64,000 bases of DNA, taken from the IMG/VR virus record IMGVR_UViG_3300045988_106448; one strand, 5' to 3'. Made by a program: the position numbers and the translations under genes. Source of the stretch: a virus. Below are positions 5,042 through 59,144 of the stretch, in pieces (the stretch's first letter is position 1; the number at the start of each line of letters is the position of its first letter). The notes beneath the pieces were generated by a model. It was not told the DNA's origin, made no database searches, and worked only from the letters and a program-made list of their open reading frames with translations.

Positions 5042-5561
5042 CATCCTATTAGGGATGAAGGATATCCAAAGGCTACCAAATACCCCCCACCACCGGGGGT
5101 ATAACCTTTTGGAACATGGTTTGGTAGTTGGAATGTTATTCCGGTGGTTCGCTTCAGAAGAGAACGTGGCGTACGACATTAACGTGTTTGACAAGGTTCT
5201 CCTACATGATTTCGTTGAAAGCGTCACGGGGGATTTAAACGCTTGTGTTAAGAAGTTTAACGATAAGACAGCCAAGGCGTGGGACATTATTGAATTTGAA
5301 ATATGCCACGGCAACCCGGTACTCGCCCCCTATTCTGATCAGGAAATAAAGAAAGCCATGACGGATCAGCAATATCGTCTATTTAAAATGTGCGATTATC
5401 TTGATTTGTGGATTTTCTGCCGGAACGAAATGGCGTTGGGAAACCGAGCGCAAAAGTTGGTTAAATGTTTGTCTAACTGCGAAAAGCTATTGGCTCACTA
5501 TTCTCATGAATGGGCTGAGTTTAAAAGCATCGCTAAATTCATGAAACAATATGAAGGGTAA
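5019..5561 (+). CDS. HD-domain 5'-deoxynucleotidase (YfbR-like)
   Basis: NLLEHGLVVG ... VLLHDFVESVTGDL (H...HD...D motif of HD phosphohydrolases). Confidence 0.6.
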   Translation: MMNYEKIDILLGMKDIQRLPNTPHHRGYNLLEHGLVVGMLFRWFASEENVAYDINVFDKVLLHDFVESVTGDLNACVKKFNDKTAKAWDIIEFEICHGNPVLAPYSDQEIKKAMTDQQYRLFKMCDYLDLWIFCRNEMALGNRAQKLVKCLSNCEKLLAHYSHEWAEFKSIAKFMKQYEG

Positions 5562-33953: not shown

Positions 33954-33987
33954 TCCCTATTTTCTTTGCCGTTTACAAAGTAAACAC

Positions 33988-39479: not shown

Positions 39480-40001
39480 TTAGGGCTTATTTATATCCAT
39501 TATAAACAATTCCAGCGGGTAGCGGCTATTGTATAACCGGGGGTTATTGGTTATGCGGATTAGGTATAACAAAAAGTTATTCTTAATATTATTGCAGCCG
39601 TTAAGGCTGCATATACAGGCGTGCCACCTATACGGGCACACGGGGGTCGTATAGCCCGGTAGGGGCGTTATTGGGGTGTAAAGGGTGTAACAGGTAGGCG
39701 GGGTATATTGGGACGTGCCGTGGATACCAAAACGAGCGGGAATTAATTTTGCTCCTAGCCAACCGGGGTAAAAATATTTTGGGGCATAACTTTTGGTTAT
39801 CGGGGTATAACTAAAAGTTATAGGAGTAAGGGGTAACGGACGTGGAGGGGGCGTGGTAACTACACGTACCCACAGGGGAATAGGGTGGGAACGAATGCGG
39901 GGTTGCCCCTGACAGGGGGTTATATTAGGGAATGGAATTGGTTTTGGGCGGTACCCGATAAAAACATTTTGGGCAACCCACAGCCCGATAGGGCTACGCA
40001 T
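39480..40001 (-). CDS. doubtful ORF (Pro/Thr/Tyr-rich) lying in hairpin-rich DNA
   Basis: YTPIT-type repeats; the DNA carries repeated ataacttttggttat / tataactaaaagttata inverted repeats. Confidence 0.2.
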   Translation of the reverse strand: MRSPIGLWVAQNVFIGYRPKPIPFPNITPCQGQPRIRSHPIPLWVRVVTTPPPRPLPLTPITFSYTPITKSYAPKYFYPGWLGAKLIPARFGIHGTSQYTPPTCYTLYTPITPLPGYTTPVCPYRWHACICSLNGCNNIKNNFLLYLIRITNNPRLYNSRYPLELFIMDINKP

Positions 40002-41388
40002 ACAGGGGCTAGTAATAGTATAGGGTAATAGGGTACACGGGTATCGAGGGGAGGTGTACGGGGTGTTTTGAGGGGTGCGGTTTAGGGTAGTTTGAGAGGT
40101 TGATAGGGTGTTACGGGCGGGGTTGATAGGGTAATTTGAGCGGTTTGGTTTAACCGCTAGGAACGTTTTTACGAGTGGTTATTTGGGGTATTTTGAGCGG
40201 TTTTGTTGCGGGCGTGTTTCCCAATACTAGCGCCAAAGCACGCAACACCCTCCCAATCCTTCCCCACTCAACCGCCCTGTAACCCCGCCAACAAGTCTCC
40301 ACAGTTTACCCCCGTCCATTACCCCTCTACCCTATGCCCGTGCCATGCCCCACGGTTATACTGATAACGTGCGGGCTTGTGTGTAGTTGGTGGGTGCGCT
40401 GCGTGTCCACGGCGCACCCGTGGAATGCGTGTGCCCGGTTTACAGACTGTAAGCAAAACCACCGCAAAAAGTTACAAATTGTAATCATTGCTAGGTATTA
40501 CAATATATAAGCAAAACGGGTCATTTTGATTACAAATTGTAAGTTTAGGGATAAAATACGGATGCGGTTTTACCCGCCAAACATAGCCCCTAACAGATCG
40601 GAGAGAGTGTCACGGAGGGGTACACCACCCCCTCCCCCGGAGATCATGAACGTCGTGTAAATCCGGAAGCTACAATAGACGGCGTAAAGGGCTCGTGGAG
40701 GCAAAGAAAGGAACCTCCCCGAATAAAACCCCCGAGAGCAACCTCCTAATCCTATACAGACATTATAGAGATCTCCAAGAAACCCCTGACTCCCATCCCT
40801 AATCCCATTGAAACACGTCAGTCATTTGCAGTAGAACCCCTGAGAATAATCCTCAACCTCCTCCCCCGAAAACCAACCCCAACAATATATCTGGAGAACC
40901 CCTTGTCGAAACCCTGATACCTACCCCTGCCTCTATTACCCCATGTAGCCCTATACCCCTACCCCATGTCATCAGTATCCAAAACACATTTTCTTTTTGT
41001 GATAACCTACTCCACCCCCGGATGATTACACGTGGAGAATCCTAGCGTCGATAAATCCTAAAACCGAATTTTCAAATTTTTAGAAATTCCGCCTGATCCG
41101 AAATTGTCATTTACCGATTTCACGGATGGTGTTGGAAGTCGGCTCGGTAGATGACACGCTTCTCCTACACACCCCTCTCCACGCCTCTTTTCGTCTAGAA
41201 AGAGAATAACACGGGTGTCGACACGTGGACATACTGTTTGTCCACGGTGAAATAACGGATTCACTCTGAAGTCACATCGGTAATTGGGAACGTGATAGGA
41301 ACCCTCCTATCGAATTCCTATACCCCTCCCCGCACCACTATCGTTCCCGTCAGAATATCATATCATCGACAGATTTTCCTATCCAAAA
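40002..41388. other. approximately 1.4 kb ORF-free control region: degenerate 21-23 bp direct repeats, palindromes, and a switch from G-rich to C-rich composition; candidate origin or divergent promoter region
   Basis: No ORF of 60 aa or more apart from one implausible minus-strand ORF; repeats of the form GGTnnTTTGAGnGGTTGATAG; the palindrome ttacaa-a-ttgtaa occurs twice. Confidence 0.55.
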
Positions 41389-41469
41389 TTGCAACTCTCC
41401 ACGTCGACACGGCGTATAGGGGTTGTATTTAATCGCCTGTTGGCACTAACACTTAAAACGAGAAAGATT

Positions 41470-42090
41470 ATGACAGACAATCAAGCACTCAATCTTGGCA
41501 TGGCAATGCACCTCCTATTCAACTCTCTAAGCTACGGTCGCGACATCGTAAACAAATCCATGGAATGCCACAGCCATGACCGTAACAACACGGTCACGAT
41601 CAACTACTCCTTCATCGGTGGACACCTCACTATCAATTGGGTCACCGTGGGTGATAACAGAGATGACGACATGACCATTGCTCTGCGACGGATGGTTGCC
41701 ACACTCGAGGATGGGGAGGACTCTACCACGCCCCTGTTCAACATCGATCGATGCAACGGTCTTTACAATAGTCCATTCCACACCCTAGCGGATGACGAGA
41801 AGGAATGGGCACGTGAAACCATAGCAAATCACAACACCACGTATCAGCAGTGTTCACTTTCTATCATCGGTCGTGGACTGCCTCCGAGCACGCCAAAACA
41901 TTCCCCCACGTTGACACCTTCCTATTTACAGCATCAACGCATGAAACTTGCCACGAAACTCTATTCCCAATTCCTCAGTGAGTACACGGGTTCGATCGCT
42001 GACGTGGAGGATGACAGCAAGAAATTGGCATCCGTAGCCGTGGCATCGGCTGATATACTTATCAACCAACTTAAATCTCAGGAATCATGA
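41470..42090 (+). CDS. hypothetical protein
   Basis: Start set at the Met with the aaagattATG context (ORF opens at 41389). Confidence 0.4.
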   Translation: MTDNQALNLGMAMHLLFNSLSYGRDIVNKSMECHSHDRNNTVTINYSFIGGHLTINWVTVGDNRDDDMTIALRRMVATLEDGEDSTTPLFNIDRCNGLYNSPFHTLADDEKEWARETIANHNTTYQQCSLSIIGRGLPPSTPKHSPTLTPSYLQHQRMKLATKLYSQFLSEYTGSIADVEDDSKKLASVAVASADILINQLKSQES

Positions 42091-42365
42091 CAAATCATCA
42101 AATTCAAGAAAATTTTACATTTCCTCAGGAAACATATCAGGCGATTGGCGTGACGTACTATCGCAAGATACCCCCACGGGGCACTATAACCGGACCGATA
42201 ATAGTATCAGCGTGGGTAACGGTGAAAACGAAGTACCAACTGAACTCCCTATTCATCACTGAACTCGCACGAGAACAGATTCCAGACTTCGATAGATTAT
42301 TTCATCCGGAAAGTTATAACACCCCGGCGGCAAACGAACGTTTAACTCGATTACATCTGTTGTGA
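42087..42365 (+). CDS. hypothetical protein
   Basis: ORF only. Confidence 0.35.
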   Translation: MTNHQIQENFTFPQETYQAIGVTYYRKIPPRGTITGPIIVSAWVTVKTKYQLNSLFITELAREQIPDFDRLFHPESYNTPAANERLTRLHLL

Positions 42366-42366
42366 T

Positions 42367-42504
42367 ATGGACGCTAAAAATTTTCGCAAGCAATTGATAG
42401 AAGTGGTTCAGTTCCTAATCCTTGGATTAATCCTAGTTCTAGGCGGCATGGTGATAGGCTTCGTTTTCGTGAAGGGCATGGACATTTTAATAGGTTTTAG
42501 ATAA
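42367..42504 (+). CDS. small membrane protein, 45 aa, first member of the tandem array
   Basis: MDAKNFRKQLIEVVQFLILGLILVLGGMVIGFVFVKGMDILIGFR; its stop TAA overlaps the next ATG (taATG). Confidence 0.4.
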   Translation: MDAKNFRKQLIEVVQFLILGLILVLGGMVIGFVFVKGMDILIGFR

Positions 42505-42755
42505 TGAGAAAGAGAAATAGACGCCTTACCCCTGATGACATTCAGCAAATCATCGTGTTTGGCTGCATGATAATCGGCATAATTGTCACTCACCTATTCT
42601 ACACGCCGTGGTCAGAAATATTTAACGAACACCCGTTCTTCACGGCGTGTTGGGGCATCATCGTGTACACGTTCGCTGGATTGATATTCGGTGAAGTGGT
42701 AGGCATCATCCTATGGTTGTTTTATGACTGCATAACTGATGATAGTATTGATTAA
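42504..42755 (+). CDS. small 2-TM membrane protein with an acidic C-tail (array member)
   Basis: ...TPWSEIF...; ends FYDCITDDSID. Confidence 0.55.
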   Translation: MRKRNRRLTPDDIQQIIVFGCMIIGIIVTHLFYTPWSEIFNEHPFFTACWGIIVYTFAGLIFGEVVGIILWLFYDCITDDSID

Positions 42756-42776
42756 TAACAAGAAAAAGGAAAAATA

Positions 42777-43016
42777 ATGGAAAATGGATACAAAGACCTC
42801 GGTATAAAAACGTTCGCATGGTGCTGGATCATCTGTGCCATTATCGGTAACATGATAATGTTACCGTGGAGCGAAATATTCGCCGGACAGCACTCCCTAC
42901 TCGACATCGTGTGGAATGTTTTCGTCATCAGCTTATGTAGCTTTTTCGTGGCGGTAGCCCTTGCGATATTTATCGACATACTGTGCGAAGATGATGATGG
43001 TACAAGCGGTTATTAA
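42777..43016 (+). CDS. small 2-TM membrane protein with an acidic C-tail (array member)
   Basis: ...LPWSEIF... shared with the previous member; ends LCEDDDGTSGY. Confidence 0.55.
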   Translation: MENGYKDLGIKTFAWCWIICAIIGNMIMLPWSEIFAGQHSLLDIVWNVFVISLCSFFVAVALAIFIDILCEDDDGTSGY

Positions 43017-43028
43017 TAAATAAAGATT

Positions 43029-43235
43029 ATGAAAATAGATTGGGTTTTCGTTAGATACATTACTATCGGCATCGTGGCTGGAATACTCGTGTTTAACGGC
43101 ATAGGAGAAAACGTATGGAGACTAGAAGAGCCTCCCTATTTATTTCTAACCGGGCTGTCAGCGTTGGGCGGCTTCTTCGGGTGGATGTTTGGATATATTG
43201 CTTATGATTCTAAAGATGATAATTATGACTACTGA
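43029..43235 (+). CDS. small 2-TM membrane protein with an acidic C-tail (array member)
   Basis: LGGFFGWMFGYIAYDSKDDNYDY. Confidence 0.55.
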   Translation: MKIDWVFVRYITIGIVAGILVFNGIGENVWRLEEPPYLFLTGLSALGGFFGWMFGYIAYDSKDDNYDY

Positions 43236-43452
43236 AAAGAAATTTATATTTGTAGGAGCCGTGGTGGGCTTCATTCTAGTACTGTTAATCATACTGATCC
43301 CTATGTGGTATTGCGCTGAGGATTTGCATGATAGTGAACAGCTAATTAAACTATGCACGGGAACGGCGGTTTTCGTGGTGTTGGGAGCGTTCTTTGGCGG
43401 ATTTGGAGGTTGGGGCTTGTACGATATGATGACCGATGATTCTTTAAACTGA
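43216..43452 (+). CDS. small 2-TM membrane protein with an acidic C-tail (array member)
   Basis: LGAFFGGFGGWGLYDMMTDDSLN; start taken at an internal Met, overlapping the stop of the previous gene. Confidence 0.5.
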   Translation: MIIMTTEKKFIFVGAVVGFILVLLIILIPMWYCAEDLHDSEQLIKLCTGTAVFVVLGAFFGGFGGWGLYDMMTDDSLN

Positions 43453-43458
43453 TGAATT

Positions 43459-43665
43459 ATGAAGAAGAAAAATTACTCGTTAGCGGGGCTAATTATAGGG
43501 CTCGTATTCATTAACGCTCTGTTTATTCCTATATGGTTTATCACGGACGATTGGCAATATGACACCAACAAATTATTCAAATTGATTTATGGCATGATTA
43601 TCATGAATCTAGGATTCGGAGCGTTAGGTTTGGTTGCCGGGTGGGGGTTGAGCCAGGATGATTAA
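43459..43665 (+). CDS. small 2-TM membrane protein with an acidic C-tail (array member)
   Basis: LGFGALGLVAGWGLSQDD. Confidence 0.55.
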   Translation: MKKKNYSLAGLIIGLVFINALFIPIWFITDDWQYDTNKLFKLIYGMIIMNLGFGALGLVAGWGLSQDD

Positions 43666-43723
43666 TTATTGAACCAGAATTTTAGGATGTTTCCTTGGGA
43701 TTCCTATTTTTACCGCTAACTTT

Positions 43724-44335
43724 GTGGCGTTAACTAATAAGACAAACATTATGAGAACAGTCAAAGACAATTTTTCAAAGGTACGTAGAATTTATCTATG
43801 CAGTAACTCACGGCTAAAGATGCCTTTTGAAAAGGCGATACAACAAATCAGAGCGGTTGATTCTGATGCTGAAATCATTAATATTTCGGATTATCAACGT
43901 AAGGAAATAAAATCGCTTGTTGCTAATTACGATGAAGTTGTGTTAATATCAGACAATTTAAAAAGCATGAACACGGCGGGTGTAACCTTCCTATTATTGG
44001 AACAGAATTACTCTACTGGGTATTTCTTTGACATGATAGATAAAATTATGTATCTTTCCGAGGATGATGCTGTTTTCTTCGAAAAGTACTATTATTTACA
44101 AAATTCTATCCAGATGGAAAAGAATCATGTAAACGATGGCATTAATTCATTTTATCTATCATCTGGAAGTTTCCACACGTTATATGCTTGCGTGTATGAC
44201 CTTGATAATATCAATGAAAACACGAAAAACAATTTATTCAGTTTTATTGAAGACCCTCGTGAAGTTTATCTGATACCCTGCCGTGACGTTTCAGATTTAA
44301 CAGTATTAGCAAATTTTGAAAATTACGATAAATAA
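43724..44335 (+). CDS. hypothetical protein
   Basis: ORF only. Confidence 0.4.
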   Translation: MALTNKTNIMRTVKDNFSKVRRIYLCSNSRLKMPFEKAIQQIRAVDSDAEIINISDYQRKEIKSLVANYDEVVLISDNLKSMNTAGVTFLLLEQNYSTGYFFDMIDKIMYLSEDDAVFFEKYYYLQNSIQMEKNHVNDGINSFYLSSGSFHTLYACVYDLDNINENTKNNLFSFIEDPREVYLIPCRDVSDLTVLANFENYDK

Positions 44336-44627
44336 AATTATGTCAGGAGTACACATTTTATATCAGAAGAGTTGCCGTTGCGTTGAAGCGATACAGTATG
44401 ACGGGAAAAACGGCAGGGACATTAACAAGTGGCTCAAGGAATCTACCAATGGAGCCGCCGTGGTGGCGTTCGACGAAGTCGACGTTGAGATTATCATTAA
44501 TGACGGAGAAGACCGCCTCCTCCATGCTATACCGGGCGATTGGGTGGTATATGAAGAATGTCCCATTGGTAGCACTCCAGAAGTATGGGTGATGCCTAAC
44601 GTGGATAGAGTAGAACATTTTAAATAA
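44316..44627 (+). CDS. hypothetical protein
   Basis: ORF only. Confidence 0.35.
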   Translation: MKITINKIMSGVHILYQKSCRCVEAIQYDGKNGRDINKWLKESTNGAAVVAFDEVDVEIIINDGEDRLLHAIPGDWVVYEECPIGSTPEVWVMPNVDRVEHFK

Positions 44628-46674: not shown

Positions 46675-47011
46675 TGGAACTCCGGTGCAAGCCATGGACA
46701 TTGAAGAAGTTTGTGTTTTTAATTGGTGGGACACAAAGCGTGTGTTAAACATGGATGCCTTTACACTGGAGGAATTTGAAACCAAATATCCAAACCACAT
46801 GACTTCTTATTTCGTGGTTGTTTACATGAAGCCACAATCTACTGGAGTTAATTCGTGGTCGAGAATGAAATATTTCTCAAAGCCTTTTCCAACACGTTGG
46901 GAAGCGGAACAAGTACGTGATGAACTCCTAACCAAACTGAATACGATAGAAGTTCAAATAGAAAACTTTAGTATTAACCCAAGACCAAAACAAAATGACA
47001 TCGAAAATTGA
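46658..47011 (+). CDS. hypothetical protein
   Basis: ORF only. Confidence 0.35.
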   Translation: MWIKINGTPVQAMDIEEVCVFNWWDTKRVLNMDAFTLEEFETKYPNHMTSYFVVVYMKPQSTGVNSWSRMKYFSKPFPTRWEAEQVRDELLTKLNTIEVQIENFSINPRPKQNDIEN

Positions 47012-47546
47012 ACCTATGAACTCAGCCCGGCTTAAACCCTTCAAAGCGTGGATGCTCACCTTTGAATGGCTCACGATAGTGGTCGTGGTTATTATTCTTA
47101 CGATGATCGCTCGATCGTGTGAGGAAGAACACATGGAATCATTATTTGCCGAATACGATGCCCCGGTAATAAATACTGATAGCCTGTCTTTGGCTGATAG
47201 CGTGTACACGTGTATTTTCTTGCTTAGGATAGAACACCCTGACATCGTGATGGCACAATGTATAGAAGAAAGCGGAGGATTTACTTCCCTACTGTTTAAA
47301 GAGGGAAACAACTGTACCGGAATGCGTGTACCCGCTCAACGCCCAACGTTAGCAACCGGAGCACTATACAATCATGCCCGTTTTGCCTCGTGGCGGGAAT
47401 GCCTAGCCGATTACGCTATTTGGCAAAGCATTTATGCCCGTGGGCTAACAAGGGAGGATTATCTGGCTTATTTAGACCGTGTTTACGCCGAGAAGAAAGG
47501 GTATAGCGAAAGACTGAAGAAAATTATTAACGATAAAAATTTGTGA
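46995..47546 (+). CDS. Endolysin: glucosaminidase (GH73/FlgJ-like) peptidoglycan hydrolase with an N-terminal signal-anchor
   Basis: TM WMLTFEWLTIVVVVIILTMIA; catalytic region QCIEESGGFTSLLFKEGNNCTGMRV (E-S-G...NN.fG pattern of the glucosaminidase family). Confidence 0.6.
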   Translation: MTSKIEPMNSARLKPFKAWMLTFEWLTIVVVVIILTMIARSCEEEHMESLFAEYDAPVINTDSLSLADSVYTCIFLLRIEHPDIVMAQCIEESGGFTSLLFKEGNNCTGMRVPAQRPTLATGALYNHARFASWRECLADYAIWQSIYARGLTREDYLAYLDRVYAEKKGYSERLKKIINDKNL

Positions 47547-47549
47547 ACC

Positions 47550-47738
47550 ATGTTTGAACAAAAATTAGTAAGAGTTGAGAATAATGATATGGAAGAATTG
47601 AATTCTCTATTAGAAGATGGATGGATTATTAAGAGTATGTCTGCCTGTGGTACCGGAGCGGATGGAGGAAGCCGTCCTAGATATGGAAGTAGCTATTGTT
47701 ACGTTTGGTTAGAAAGGAGGGCACATGAAGGCAATTAA
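47550..47738 (+). CDS. hypothetical small protein
   Basis: ORF only. Confidence 0.3.
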   Translation: MFEQKLVRVENNDMEELNSLLEDGWIIKSMSACGTGADGGSRPRYGSSYCYVWLERRAHEGN

Positions 47739-47970
47739 CATCACACGAATCATTCTTTTGATTGTTTGGCTTATTTCGTGTTCGGCTTGCGACCCCAATG
47801 CGGCAACCTGTAAACGTTCTAAACAAACAATGAAACGTTTTGATAGCACGAAGGATAAAGAGTTTAAAGCCGTGTACGTTCATAGGCAATATATAGTAGC
47901 TTACGTGATAGAATATGAAGGAAAGCAATACCTTCTGAGCACGGATGGCGGAATTATAGAAATTAAATAA
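47725..47970 (+). CDS. predicted lipoprotein (o-spanin-like candidate)
   Basis: Signal peptide followed by the lipobox LISC (MKAINITRIILLIVWLISCSAC). Confidence 0.45.
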   Translation: MKAINITRIILLIVWLISCSACDPNAATCKRSKQTMKRFDSTKDKEFKAVYVHRQYIVAYVIEYEGKQYLLSTDGGIIEIK

Positions 47971-47980
47971 ATCTTAAACC

Positions 47981-48454
47981 ATGAAAAGAATTTTGTTAAT
48001 AGCCGGGTTAATGATGCTGTGGGTTACGGCTCATTCCCAAATCGCCTACTATAAAACGGGGTGGAAACTTGCTGATCAAGAGAAGGTACACGTTTATAGC
48101 ACGAATAATGGCAGCGTCGAGTTCGAAATAGCTGATGGAGGTGAATACCGTATTCGGGGGTATAACATTGATCTTAAAACCGATTCTTTAGTATTAACCT
48201 TTAAAATTCATTGCGTGTTTATATCATACGATGAACAGATGGGTGGTTACGTGTACAAAGCCACCGTGTTTGATTTCCTAAACCTTAAATATACCAAGTC
48301 ATTTATCTTTTCTAAGAAGAAATTAAGCGAATTTCAATCTGGTCTTACTTTAAATGACGGTATGCTGATTTCAGCTTTTCGTGAAGGAAGCGATGGGAAA
48401 TGGTATCCACAACGTAGATTCGTATTAACCTTTCATAAACGTTTACCAAAATGA
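47981..48454 (+). CDS. secreted protein (signal peptide)
   Basis: MKRILLIAGLMMLWVTAHSQ. Confidence 0.4.
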   Translation: MKRILLIAGLMMLWVTAHSQIAYYKTGWKLADQEKVHVYSTNNGSVEFEIADGGEYRIRGYNIDLKTDSLVLTFKIHCVFISYDEQMGGYVYKATVFDFLNLKYTKSFIFSKKKLSEFQSGLTLNDGMLISAFREGSDGKWYPQRRFVLTFHKRLPK

Positions 48455-48675
48455 GCAACGAAGAACAATTTCAGGAATGGCTCTCAGAGCATAAAGAAGA
48501 ATTAGAAGATGCGGTACTTGATCAATTCTTGGGTTATCACCCCGGTAAAATGGAAAACCCGTGCACCGAAACTTCGGTAACCCAAACTACCCCTCTAACC
48601 ACGAAAATATTCTATGGAATTATAGTGGTGTGTTTCGTGTATCTAGTAATTTGTATTTTAACGCATTATTTGTAA
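48451..48675 (+). CDS. small protein with a C-terminal TM anchor
   Basis: ...IFYGIIVVCFVYLVICILTHYL. Confidence 0.35.
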   Translation: MSNEEQFQEWLSEHKEELEDAVLDQFLGYHPGKMENPCTETSVTQTTPLTTKIFYGIIVVCFVYLVICILTHYL

Positions 48676-52511: not shown

Positions 52512-52733
52512 ATGGAAAAAGATTTCTTAACTATCACGCCCGAATCGGGTAGTGGTAATGGTTCATTGAACGTGGTGGCGGCAGCGAACACCGGAGCCGC
52601 TCGTAGTACAACCGTTAACATCGGTGGGAGTGGTATCAGTAAAACTGTAACAGTTAGTCAAGAAAAGGGTGCAGTTAATGTTCTTATTGCAGGCTGGTAT
52701 GGTACCCTTGCAAAGATAGAAATTCCTAGATAA
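52512..52733 (+). CDS. short BACON-like domain protein
   Basis: ITPESGSGNGSLNVVAAANTGAARSTTVNIGGSGISKTVTVSQ matches the C-terminal half of the Bacteroidetes BACON domain. Confidence 0.5.
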   Translation: MEKDFLTITPESGSGNGSLNVVAAANTGAARSTTVNIGGSGISKTVTVSQEKGAVNVLIAGWYGTLAKIEIPR

Positions 52734-52758
52734 ATGTATAATTATTAAAGTATATGTT

Positions 52759-53607
52759 ATGGCAACAGTAAAAAATACAAAATGGAGGCATTTTGCTTAT
52801 GGTAATGGAATGTATGTTGTAGGTGGAGAGAATGCTATAGATAGTAACATAGCATATTCAACGGATGGTATTAATTGGACTCCGGTGGATACTAGTGTAT
52901 ATAGGATAGATTCAATGGCTTATGGAAATGGTAAATTTATAGCTTGTGGTATGGGTAAACGAGGGGATGCTAGTAATACTGATGTTTCCATGGGTTATTC
53001 AAACGATGGGAAAAGTTGGTCGTTTACTACGCTAGGGTATTATACAGATTATAGAAAATTAGGTATAATATTTGCTGAAAATAGATTTGTTGCTGGTGGT
53101 AAAAATAGAGTTGTAGAGTATTCTACAGATGGTGTAACTTGGAATTCAGTTACCGTGGTTAATTATGATATTTCATATTCTCTAATTGCGTACGGTAACG
53201 GCATATATATTGCATTAGAAAATGCATCCCCTAGTCAAGCTAGATATTCTATTTCACGTAATGGTTTAACAGGTTCTTGGACTTCTGGAAACTTAGCATC
53301 GGAACAATCCATTAAAAATGTGGTCGATGTAATCTTTAATGTAGAGGAATTTGTAATTATTGCTGGAAAGACCATATATACTACACCGGATTTTATAACT
53401 TTTACACGAAAGTCTAGTGTAAGTGGTAGACTTTTAAAAGCAAGTTATAAAGATGGATTATACGTCATAGTTGGTAAGCAGGGTAGCAACGACAATGCTT
53501 ATTTAGCATATTCCACTGATTTAACAGAATGGACAGAAATAAACCCTATCATTGATGAAACAGGAAAGACTGTAACTGATGAGCTAGACGGAGTTCTAAT
53601 TATGTAG
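52759..53607 (+). CDS. BNR/Asp-box repeat beta-propeller protein (sialidase-like fold; candidate receptor-binding or glycan-binding)
   Basis: Repeated YSTDGINWT, YSNDGKSWS, YSTDGVTWN, YSTDLTEWT (S-x-D-x-G-x-T-W) alternating with AYGNG(M/K/I)Y. Confidence 0.6.
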   Translation: MATVKNTKWRHFAYGNGMYVVGGENAIDSNIAYSTDGINWTPVDTSVYRIDSMAYGNGKFIACGMGKRGDASNTDVSMGYSNDGKSWSFTTLGYYTDYRKLGIIFAENRFVAGGKNRVVEYSTDGVTWNSVTVVNYDISYSLIAYGNGIYIALENASPSQARYSISRNGLTGSWTSGNLASEQSIKNVVDVIFNVEEFVIIAGKTIYTTPDFITFTRKSSVSGRLLKASYKDGLYVIVGKQGSNDNAYLAYSTDLTEWTEINPIIDETGKTVTDELDGVLIM

Positions 53608-53867: not shown

Positions 53868-53914
53868 TTTCCGGATTTTTCTTTGCATATATCCAAAAGT
53901 ATATTATATTTGTA
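53868..53914 (+). repeat. 47-bp promoter-bearing element, copy 1 (contains TATATTTG at 53905-53912)
   Basis: tttccggatttttctttgcatatatccaaaagtAtattatatttgt; identical bar one base to 59098-59144. Confidence 0.7.
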
Positions 53915-59097: not shown

Positions 59098-59144
59098 TTT
59101 CCGGATTTTTCTTTGCATATATCCAAAAGTGTATTATATTTGTG
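59098..59144 (+). repeat. 47-bp promoter-bearing element, copy 2 (TATATTTG at 59135-59142)
   Basis: tttccggatttttctttgcatatatccaaaagtGtattatatttgt. Confidence 0.7.

Follow-up and report, generated by a model that had tools for sequence, protein, structure and literature searches.

How has a tightly packed row of six genes for small membrane proteins evolved in a phage genome, and which function might it fulfil? This question is raised by positions 42367-43665 of the virus record IMGVR_UViG_3300045988_106448, of which a stretch of 64,000 nucleotides (nt), termed the window in the following, was analysed. Six consecutive open reading frames (ORFs) on the plus strand, designated m1 to m6, fill this region with hardly any gaps between them. 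In the original prediction, which had been made from the sequence alone, they were described as six paralogues with acidic C-terminal tails and as a duplicated and diversifying family at a locus under conflict. Comparison with sister phages indicates that the array is a hypervariable accessory cassette locus, and the account of its anatomy and evolution given below is considered very likely to be correct.

The reference proteins were mapped on about 40 sister loci (labels L001-L049). Between the conserved flanking genes up92 and dn95, with flank identities of 91% or more in full-length matches, at least 13 array haplotypes were found, in which the number of genes for proteins with two transmembrane (TM) segments ranges from 1 to 7 (Table 1). 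The search for copy-number variation in related phages, which had been proposed as a check, was therefore strongly positive. The gene m1 heads the array in all haplotypes with a recovered left end, except in L023. Contigs with an identical (100%) m2 protein nevertheless carried differing arrays; an exact copy of the m2 protein was present in 35 indexed blocks of the public collection, and 23 contigs were read. None of the genes m2 to m6 is present in all of the long contigs (112-116 kb or 91.8 kb), and this natural absence suggests that each cassette is individually dispensable in nature. At least one two-helix gene is kept in every haplotype.

Table 1. Gene content of the array in the window and in sister loci (mA and mB, genes of sister phages; ins203, gene between the spacer and the right flank)
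Gene content	Found in
m1 mA m2 mB m3 m4 m5 m6	L007
m1 m2 m3 m4 m5 m6 + ins203	window, L043
m1 m2 m3 m4 m5 m6, no ins203	L040
m1 mB m3 m4 m5 m6	L011, L021, L022
m1 mA m2 mB m3	L001-L006
m1 m2 m3 m4	L042, L045
m1 m2 m3	L016, L018, L020, L038, L039, L041, L044
m1 m2/5-chimera m6	L010
m1 m2/6-chimera	L008, L009, L047-L049
m2/6-chimera + ins203	L025
m1 pseudo-mB m5 m6 + ins203	L046
mA mB	L023

The turnover of the array appears to consist of precise loss and gain of cassettes and, in addition, of recombination between paralogues. Two in-frame chimeras, m2/m5 and m2/m6, were found, and m2 is the 5' partner in both. In the m2/5 chimera the tail of m5 has been swapped in, and in the m2/6 chimera (118 amino acids [aa]) the junction lies inside a 15-nt identity of the paralogues, TACTCGTTAGCGGGG. 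The latter chimera was seen in at least five samples, including the 91.8-kb contig, and is therefore no assembly artefact. Three TM segments are predicted for it (L008, positions 1172-1528; L009; L047-L049), so that the loop and tail derived from m6 would face the side of the membrane opposite to that in native m6; the chimera would then function through its m2-like half alone, or else act inside the membrane. Furthermore, two pseudogenised states occur: mB is frameshifted in L046 (2326-2558), and m3' and m5' are truncated in L013 (4468-4955), L014 and L015, where m6' is intact. A second phage lineage (L012, L017) possesses an m3'-m5'-m6' cassette in another gene neighbourhood, which implies that the cassette was rearranged or transferred between phage lineages. 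When L012 (2587-5201) was compared with the window (52518-53607), few genes were shared; a 282-aa protein was 64% identical, and m5-m6 showed 77% nucleotide identity.

That the six ORFs are real genes, each under purifying selection, is shown by the ratio of nonsynonymous to synonymous changes (pN/pS), which was obtained from codon alignments of the orthologues in sister contigs (m1 0.17, m2 0.26, m3 0.52, m4 0.03, m5 0.15, m6 0.15). Between the two phage lineages, pS was 0.65-0.73 and pN 0.09-0.11 for m5, with 84% aa identity kept, and the corresponding values for m6 were 0.66-0.80 and 0.08-0.13. Both proteins hold 84-85% aa identity in the second lineage at synonymous sites near saturation. 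Short hydrophobic ORFs without a database family could also be chance frames in non-coding or differently coded DNA, but this explanation is refuted by the pN/pS values far below 1 of all six. In addition, the reading frames are uninterrupted in tens of contigs, the opposite strand contains no comparable ORFs and the gene boundaries are tightly coupled, so that chance frames are next to impossible here. The description of the family as diversifying does not hold in the sense of positive selection either: every orthologue set is under purifying selection, and the diversity is found in the cassette content and in the paralogue chimeras. Diversification has proceeded through gene content and not through positive selection on the sequence.

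The gene boundaries deviate in some respects from the initial description. The TAATG overlap of the m1 stop codon and the m2 start codon is present at 42500-42504, as had been reported. A 4-nt ATGA overlap is absent from the array; the instance in question is located upstream, between up206 and up92 (42087-42090). The same two genes, encoding 206 and 92 aa, intervene between the array and a control region to which the array had been placed immediately adjacent. With regard to m5, the gene calls and the orthologues, which begin with MT(T)EKKF, identify the ATG at 43225 as the start, and not the TTG at 43189 from which an 87-aa protein would result. The m5 protein is therefore 75 aa long, the sizes in the array range from 45 to 83 aa (the lower limit of the previously given 45-87 aa stands) and m4 shares its last 11 nt (43225-43235) with m5.

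For the analysis of paralogy, 1000 shuffles were confined within the N-terminus, TM1, loop, TM2 and tail, by which the layout of TM segments and loops was kept. Plain residue shuffles had also yielded high z-scores; they were dropped, since they overstate the similarity of TM proteins. Scores above all 1000 layout-preserving shuffles were obtained for the pairs m2-m3 (z 7.1), m2-m5 (z 5.8) and m5-m6 (z 6.7) and, with the sister-phage gene mB, for m2-mB (z 8.9) and mB-m3 (z 5.2). These pairwise links join m2, mB, m3, m5 and m6 as one family, in which TM1 is followed by a (P)W, TM2 carries motifs of small residues or glycine and the tail is of the type Y/I-D-x3-(D/E)-D. The m4 protein scored 7.8 bits against a family profile built without it, compared to about 3 bits for unrelated TM controls. 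Its best partner is mA, likewise from sister phages, whose score was reached by 3 of 1000 shuffles, and an alignment of m4 plus mA against the core family with hhalign resulted in a probability of 1.8%. No significant similarity of m1 to the family was detected with the layout-preserving shuffles or the family profile.

A local family of divergent paralogues thus exists, and the claim of six paralogues stands for m2, m3, m5 and m6, is borderline for m4 and is not supported for m1. A recent duplication is contradicted by the low aa identity of the paralogues (25-31%) and by the absence of long shared DNA repeats, both of which indicate that the duplications are old. Dispersed copies of the family elsewhere in the window were not found. 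By these comparisons, m2, m3, m5 and m6 appear to be old paralogues of a single lineage-restricted family, and m4 may represent a second look-alike type that groups weakly with mA.

According to hydropathy analysis, m1 has a single TM segment and m2 to m6 have two each, in agreement with the one or two helices that had been stated for each protein. In m2 to m6 the basic residues are located N-terminally, and the loop between the helices as well as the C-terminal tail are acidic; because of this distribution, a topology with cytoplasmic N-terminus, outward loop and cytoplasmic C-terminus (N-in/loop-out/C-in) is predicted. The five proteins would be helical hairpins of the inner membrane. Starting from a basic N-terminus in the cytoplasm, the predicted order is a very hydrophobic TM1 (Kyte-Doolittle values up to 3.4), a (P)W that is conserved at the outer interface of the membrane, a periplasmic loop that is short and acidic, a TM2 rich in glycine and an acidic tail in the cytoplasm. 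The interface tryptophan is invariant among the hairpins. An AlphaFold2 model of m5, computed with the family alignment, is likewise a helical hairpin (helices 2-32 and 37-70; mean predicted local distance difference test score 70). All sequence motifs on which the family had originally been based (TPWSEIF, LPWSEIF, LGGFFGWMFG, LGAFFGGFGGWGL and GLVAGWGL) were recovered in m2 to m6, respectively, and the acidic tails were found as quoted in these five proteins; m1, for which a tail had been claimed as well, lacks one. The tails of m4, m5 and m6 are near-invariant among orthologues, with a single variable position, in m5. The segment-wise variability of m2 and m3 was set aside, as their sequences are mixed with chimeras and the divergent lineage.

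The statement that the proteins cannot be placed in any named family was confirmed by the absence of matches in Pfam, PHROGs, NCBIfam, PADLOC, PDB and GenBank phages. Scans of the array proteins against Pfam, PHROGs, PADLOC and NCBIfam gave only sub-threshold matches typical of TM composition, such as Colicin_V (18.6 bits at a cut-off of 29.3), which was rejected, and holin models in Pfam, PHROGs and NCBIfam were not matched at E-values up to 1. Nothing was matched in GenBank phages by a near-identity DNA search with positions 41500-44500 or by tblastn with m5. The lone match of the PDB profile search, NuoH (E 1.8), is noise. The best match of the m5 model among viral structures in Foldseek (E 0.68) was to generic helical hairpins, a fold too poor in information for a fold-based assignment. 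In a word-indexed search of 5.8 billion proteins 17 clusters were found, all of which are orthologues on sister contigs. A HMMER profile search of 1.84 billion representative proteins returned this phage group and one spurious match, the eukaryotic FN3-repeat phosphatase P0018, which was matched via repeated GAIIIGAVTVN stretches and was rejected as a relative. Scans with m6 and m3 gave no match in species-representative genomes and only one contig in IMG/VR. The array family therefore seems to be an orphan family restricted to one group of phage lineages.

Table 2. Coordinates of the array genes and of neighbouring features in the window
Feature	Position	Strand	Length	Description
m1	42367-42504	+	45 aa	One TM segment, no acidic tail, C-terminus ...DILIGFR; separate one-helix protein
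m2	42504-42755	+	83 aa	Predicted two-TM hairpin, basic N-terminus, TPWSEIF after TM1, GxxxGxxxG in TM2, tail YDCITDDSID; core family
m3	42777-43016	+	79 aa	Predicted two-TM hairpin, LPWSEIF, tail EDDDGTSGY; core family
m4	43029-43235	+	68 aa	Predicted two-TM hairpin, LGGFFGWMFG, tail DSKDDNYDY; architecture as in the others, sequence groups with mA of sister phages
m5	43225-43452	+	75 aa	Predicted two-TM hairpin, ATG start, IPMW after TM1, Gly-rich TM2, motif LGAFFGGFGGWGL, tail YDMMTDDSLN; core family
m6	43459-43665	+	68 aa	Predicted two-TM hairpin, IPIW after TM1, GLVAGWGL, tail SQDD; core family
up206	41470-42090	+	206 aa	First gene of the rightward unit, conserved left flank
up92	42087-42365	+	92 aa	Conserved left flank adjoining the array; ATGA overlap with up206
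spacer	43666-43750	+	85 nt	Closes the array; CTTG-N19-TAACTTTG, -7 box at 43717-43724
ins203	43751-44335	+	194-203 aa	No membrane segment, GC content 0.32-0.37, between spacer and right flank
dn95	44340-44627	+		Conserved right flank; 91-100% identity in full-length matches
Possible lysis cassette	46995-48675
Glucosaminidase	46995-47546	+		PF01832 (42 bits), N-terminal TM or signal-anchor-like segment
Lipoprotein-like ORF	47725-47970		81 aa
Signal-peptide protein	47981-48454
Tail-anchored ORF	48451-48675		74 aa

The window belongs to a human gut phage with a genome of about 113 kb; sister contigs have sizes of 112-116 kb, and several are labelled as human gut metagenome. The encoded proteins include a DnaE-type polymerase, SbcC, a NAD-dependent ligase, helicases, a ribonucleotide reductase and GroEL. 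The nearest cultured phages, with polymerase identities of 30-39%, infect Tenacibaculum, Cellulophaga, Chryseobacterium and Bacteroides. The second lineage (L012, L013, L017) carries genes with BACON domains, to which short stretches of the window are similar. In addition, the promoter motif of Bacteroidota (TTTG-N-TAnnTTTG) is enriched in the window (9 found, 3.1 expected). Based on the nearest phages, the BACON-domain genes and the enriched motif, a host from the Bacteroidota is probable. Two of the motif sites, at 53882-53912 and 59112-59142, are near-identical 31-mers, TTTGCATATATCCAAAAGT(A/G)TATTATATTTG; other sites of the motif are located at 33965, 57808 and, on the minus strand, 63873.

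About 1.4 kb of non-coding sequence upstream of up206 (window 39600-41470) make up a control region with a sharp change of the GC skew, from +0.50 to -0.38. It contains four G-rich 22-nt iterons (GGGTAnTTTGAGCGGTTT-like, 40061-40207) and two copies of the palindrome TTACAAATTGTAA, at 40472 and 40530 and thus at a distance of 58 nt (chance expectation 0.31), and looks like an origin or operator between divergent gene blocks. The up206 gene is present in all sister loci with 80-100% aa identity. No match to it was found in Pfam, PHROG or PADLOC, and its homologues are confined to the same phage group, so that they are uninformative for dating or typing the operon. The N-terminal half of up92 occurs as alternative alleles (MTNHQIQENFTFPQETYQ... 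and MTAEFQPESSTLPSSEGK..., 68-99% identity, pN/pS 0.61), and its C-terminal half is conserved. Between up206 and up92, some sister loci (L001, positions 5146-5334; L002-L006, L023 and L040) harbour x62, a 62-aa gene with two TM segments; its sequence is unrelated to the array family, and it is missing in the window.

The array genes overlap or nearly abut in an operon-like manner and are presumably co-transcribed. The spacer behind them, which is followed by dn95 or ins203, is near-invariant in 15 loci, whichever gene ends the array (m3, m4, m6, mB or a chimera). Its CTTG-N19-TAACTTTG element is the sole full match to the -33/-7 consensus of Bacteroidota on the plus strand between 40000 and 45200 in a relaxed scan; a strict search for TTTG-N17-23-TAnnTTTG gave nothing in the same range. 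A scan for sigma-70 promoters and terminators did not exceed the shuffled expectation, the sigma-70 model being unsuited to Bacteroidota. Just upstream of the promoter match there is a small hairpin with a T-run, for which no terminator is claimed (fold z-score 0.06 against shuffles). The array may hence be the last (3') part of the first rightward unit of transcription, and the next unit may begin in the spacer. The gene ins203 looks like a recent insertion; it was found in the window, L043, L046, L025 and L019, is missing from most other loci and has no family match in Pfam, PHROG, PADLOC or NCBIfam. For dn95, weak matches to PHROG families without an assigned function were obtained.

With respect to the function, a conflict locus is a plausible interpretation, to which the copy-number variation lends further weight; some role in conflict at the inner membrane is, on balance, the more probable case. 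Superinfection exclusion specifically is favoured here by analogy, at an estimated probability of roughly 0.35-0.4. The array proteins would insert into the inner membrane of the host early in infection. The hairpins would block the genome entry of superinfecting phages by binding their membrane-inserting DNA-delivery proteins, either inside the membrane or at it. Each paralogue would cover different competitors, and the content of the array would vary because of these proposed different specificities. The small inner-membrane protein Imm of phage T4 binds the tape-measure protein, and gp15 of HK97 is reported to act alike (bioRxiv 10.64898/2026.03.06.709160). The array resembles both in that small, helical phage proteins of the inner membrane are predicted to be encoded by accessory genes in a non-structural region; the tape-measure gene lies outside the window. 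A loop tryptophan is important for the action of Imm (bioRxiv 10.64898/2026.03.06.709160), and the array hairpins also bear an invariant tryptophan at the interface. In contrast, the model of Imm has four helices and its N-terminus in the periplasm, whereas two-helix hairpins with an inward N-terminus are predicted for the array. Moreover, imm and the HK97 gene are single genes and no paralogue arrays. Literature on arrays of small phage membrane proteins yielded nothing specific beyond the Imm preprint.

Several points weigh against superinfection exclusion. Searches of PHROG, Pfam, PDB and GenBank phages and with Foldseek revealed no resemblance to Imm, gp15 or known exclusion proteins in sequence, profile or fold. 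That every contig keeps at least one two-helix gene could mean that a redundant function is needed, for example in lysis. The inverted m6-derived half of the chimera would be awkward if the periplasmic loop were the working surface, and the early expression is assumed from the gene position.

Exclusion could also be part of a broader repertoire. Orphan or poly-immunity arrays of bacteria, for example for immunity to pore-forming colicins or in contact-dependent and type VI systems, consist of tandem, divergent small proteins, often in the membrane, which vary in number between strains and recombine; one specificity per paralogue is presumed. The array shares the tandem arrangement, the divergence, the small membrane proteins, the varying number and the recombination. 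In such a poly-immunity array, each hairpin would neutralise the delivery protein of a different competitor or a different membrane-acting effector of the host, and new specificities would be generated by recombination between paralogues (m2/5, m2/6) and by exchange of cassettes between lineages; taken together, these assumptions are unlikely to be correct. The bacterial arrays are located beside toxin loci, whereas the array is part of an operon of a lytic-type phage, without an evident toxin gene and without homology. For Imm itself, an analogy to colicin immunity has been drawn (bioRxiv 10.64898/2026.03.06.709160).

If the hairpins were directed against the host rather than against other phages, they would inhibit proteins of its inner membrane, such as abortive-infection effectors, sensors, proteases or transporters, and the content of the array would track the host defences. 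Cassette-variable, dispensable small genes are the pattern of phage anti-defence loci, and the array genes, variable as cassettes between conserved flanks and under purifying selection, conform to it; the glycine-rich, GxxxG-like TM2 would also suit helix-helix packing with a partner. The hairpins do not resemble known anti-defence proteins, no PADLOC-related partner lies nearby, and the present data do not separate such a host take-over or counter-defence from exclusion; this possibility is regarded as somewhat unlikely. The hyperplastic or accessory regions and anti-defence islands of large phages are similar in their conserved flanks, variable dispensable small genes and exchange of cassettes across lineages. 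The array differs from them in that its cassettes belong mostly to one or two look-alike membrane families and in that new alleles arise via in-frame recombination of paralogues.

A control of lysis, in which one or more hairpins would be class II holins, pinholins or antiholins that time the release of the downstream membrane-anchored glucosaminidase and the paralogues would make the timing redundant or tunable, is less likely than exclusion and on the whole distinctly unlikely. The size of 68-83 aa, the two TM segments, the predicted N-in/C-in topology, the charged C-tail and the small-residue motifs in TM2, reminiscent of the pinholin lumen, are shared with class II holins and pinholins such as S68 of phage 21 (about 70 aa). 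It would fit as well that no contig has lost all members and that the glucosaminidase lies on the same strand, with lipoprotein-like and tail-anchored small ORFs behind it (Table 2). Holin tails, however, are typically rich in basic residues, and those of the array are purely acidic. Furthermore, TM1 is strongly hydrophobic, unlike the releasable TM1 of pinholins, no holin profile was matched, and the copies are multiple (1 to 7) and the retained gene set is not constant. The array is not beside a muralytic enzyme either: the glucosaminidase, the only muralytic candidate, is 3.3 kb away, with six genes and the promoter-like spacer in between.

Tandem look-alike small membrane proteins with helices rich in small residues might also be modules of toxin and immunity, in which some hairpins depolarise the membrane and their neighbours are the cognate antidotes, for addiction or abortive competition. 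An obligate co-occurrence of toxin and antidote was not found among the haplotypes; only m5 never occurs without m6 in this small sample, and m6 occurs without intact m5 in L010 and L013-L015, a picture that a toxin whose immunity gene can persist as an orphan would give. Adjacent pairs are mostly broken (m3 without m2, m4 without m5 or m6, mA without m2, chimeras), one architecture prevails throughout with no evident class of toxin or antidote, and type I toxins with their single TM segment are proteins of another kind, so that this explanation is very unlikely. Even less probable is a role as membrane anchors, whose acidic cytoplasmic tails (DDSID, DDNYDY, DDDGTSGY) would recruit phage or host proteins of DNA metabolism or tether the replicating genome. 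Single-stranded DNA-binding proteins (SSB) possess acidic C-terminal tips of this kind, and the small membrane proteins p1 and p16.7 of phi29 are membrane tethers. The array tails are conserved, with those of m4 to m6 near-invariant, and end partly in an aromatic residue, and the genome is rich in replication genes; but a structural role in replication does not predict 1-7 copies or the loss of any member, and family scans showed no similarity to p1 or p16.7.

Whichever function applies, the claim of six paralogues is corrected, and the array represents a case of diversification by gene content rather than by sequence. To our knowledge, a modular, recombining exclusion repertoire has not been described before in a virulent-type phage of gut Bacteroidota, and we know of hardly any characterised early or accessory genes of these abundant phages. 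The locus constitutes a natural experiment, with more than 12 haplotypes in near-identical backgrounds and with natural chimeras. Should the hairpins be lysis proteins, they would define a holin type for a phage group where none is known. If superinfection exclusion or counter-defence is true, the haplotypes would point to specificities and the chimeras would map their determinants, which would provide a handle on the competition between gut phages. The array would then also be an example of small membrane proteins that gate the entry of DNA, a process worked out only recently for Imm of T4.

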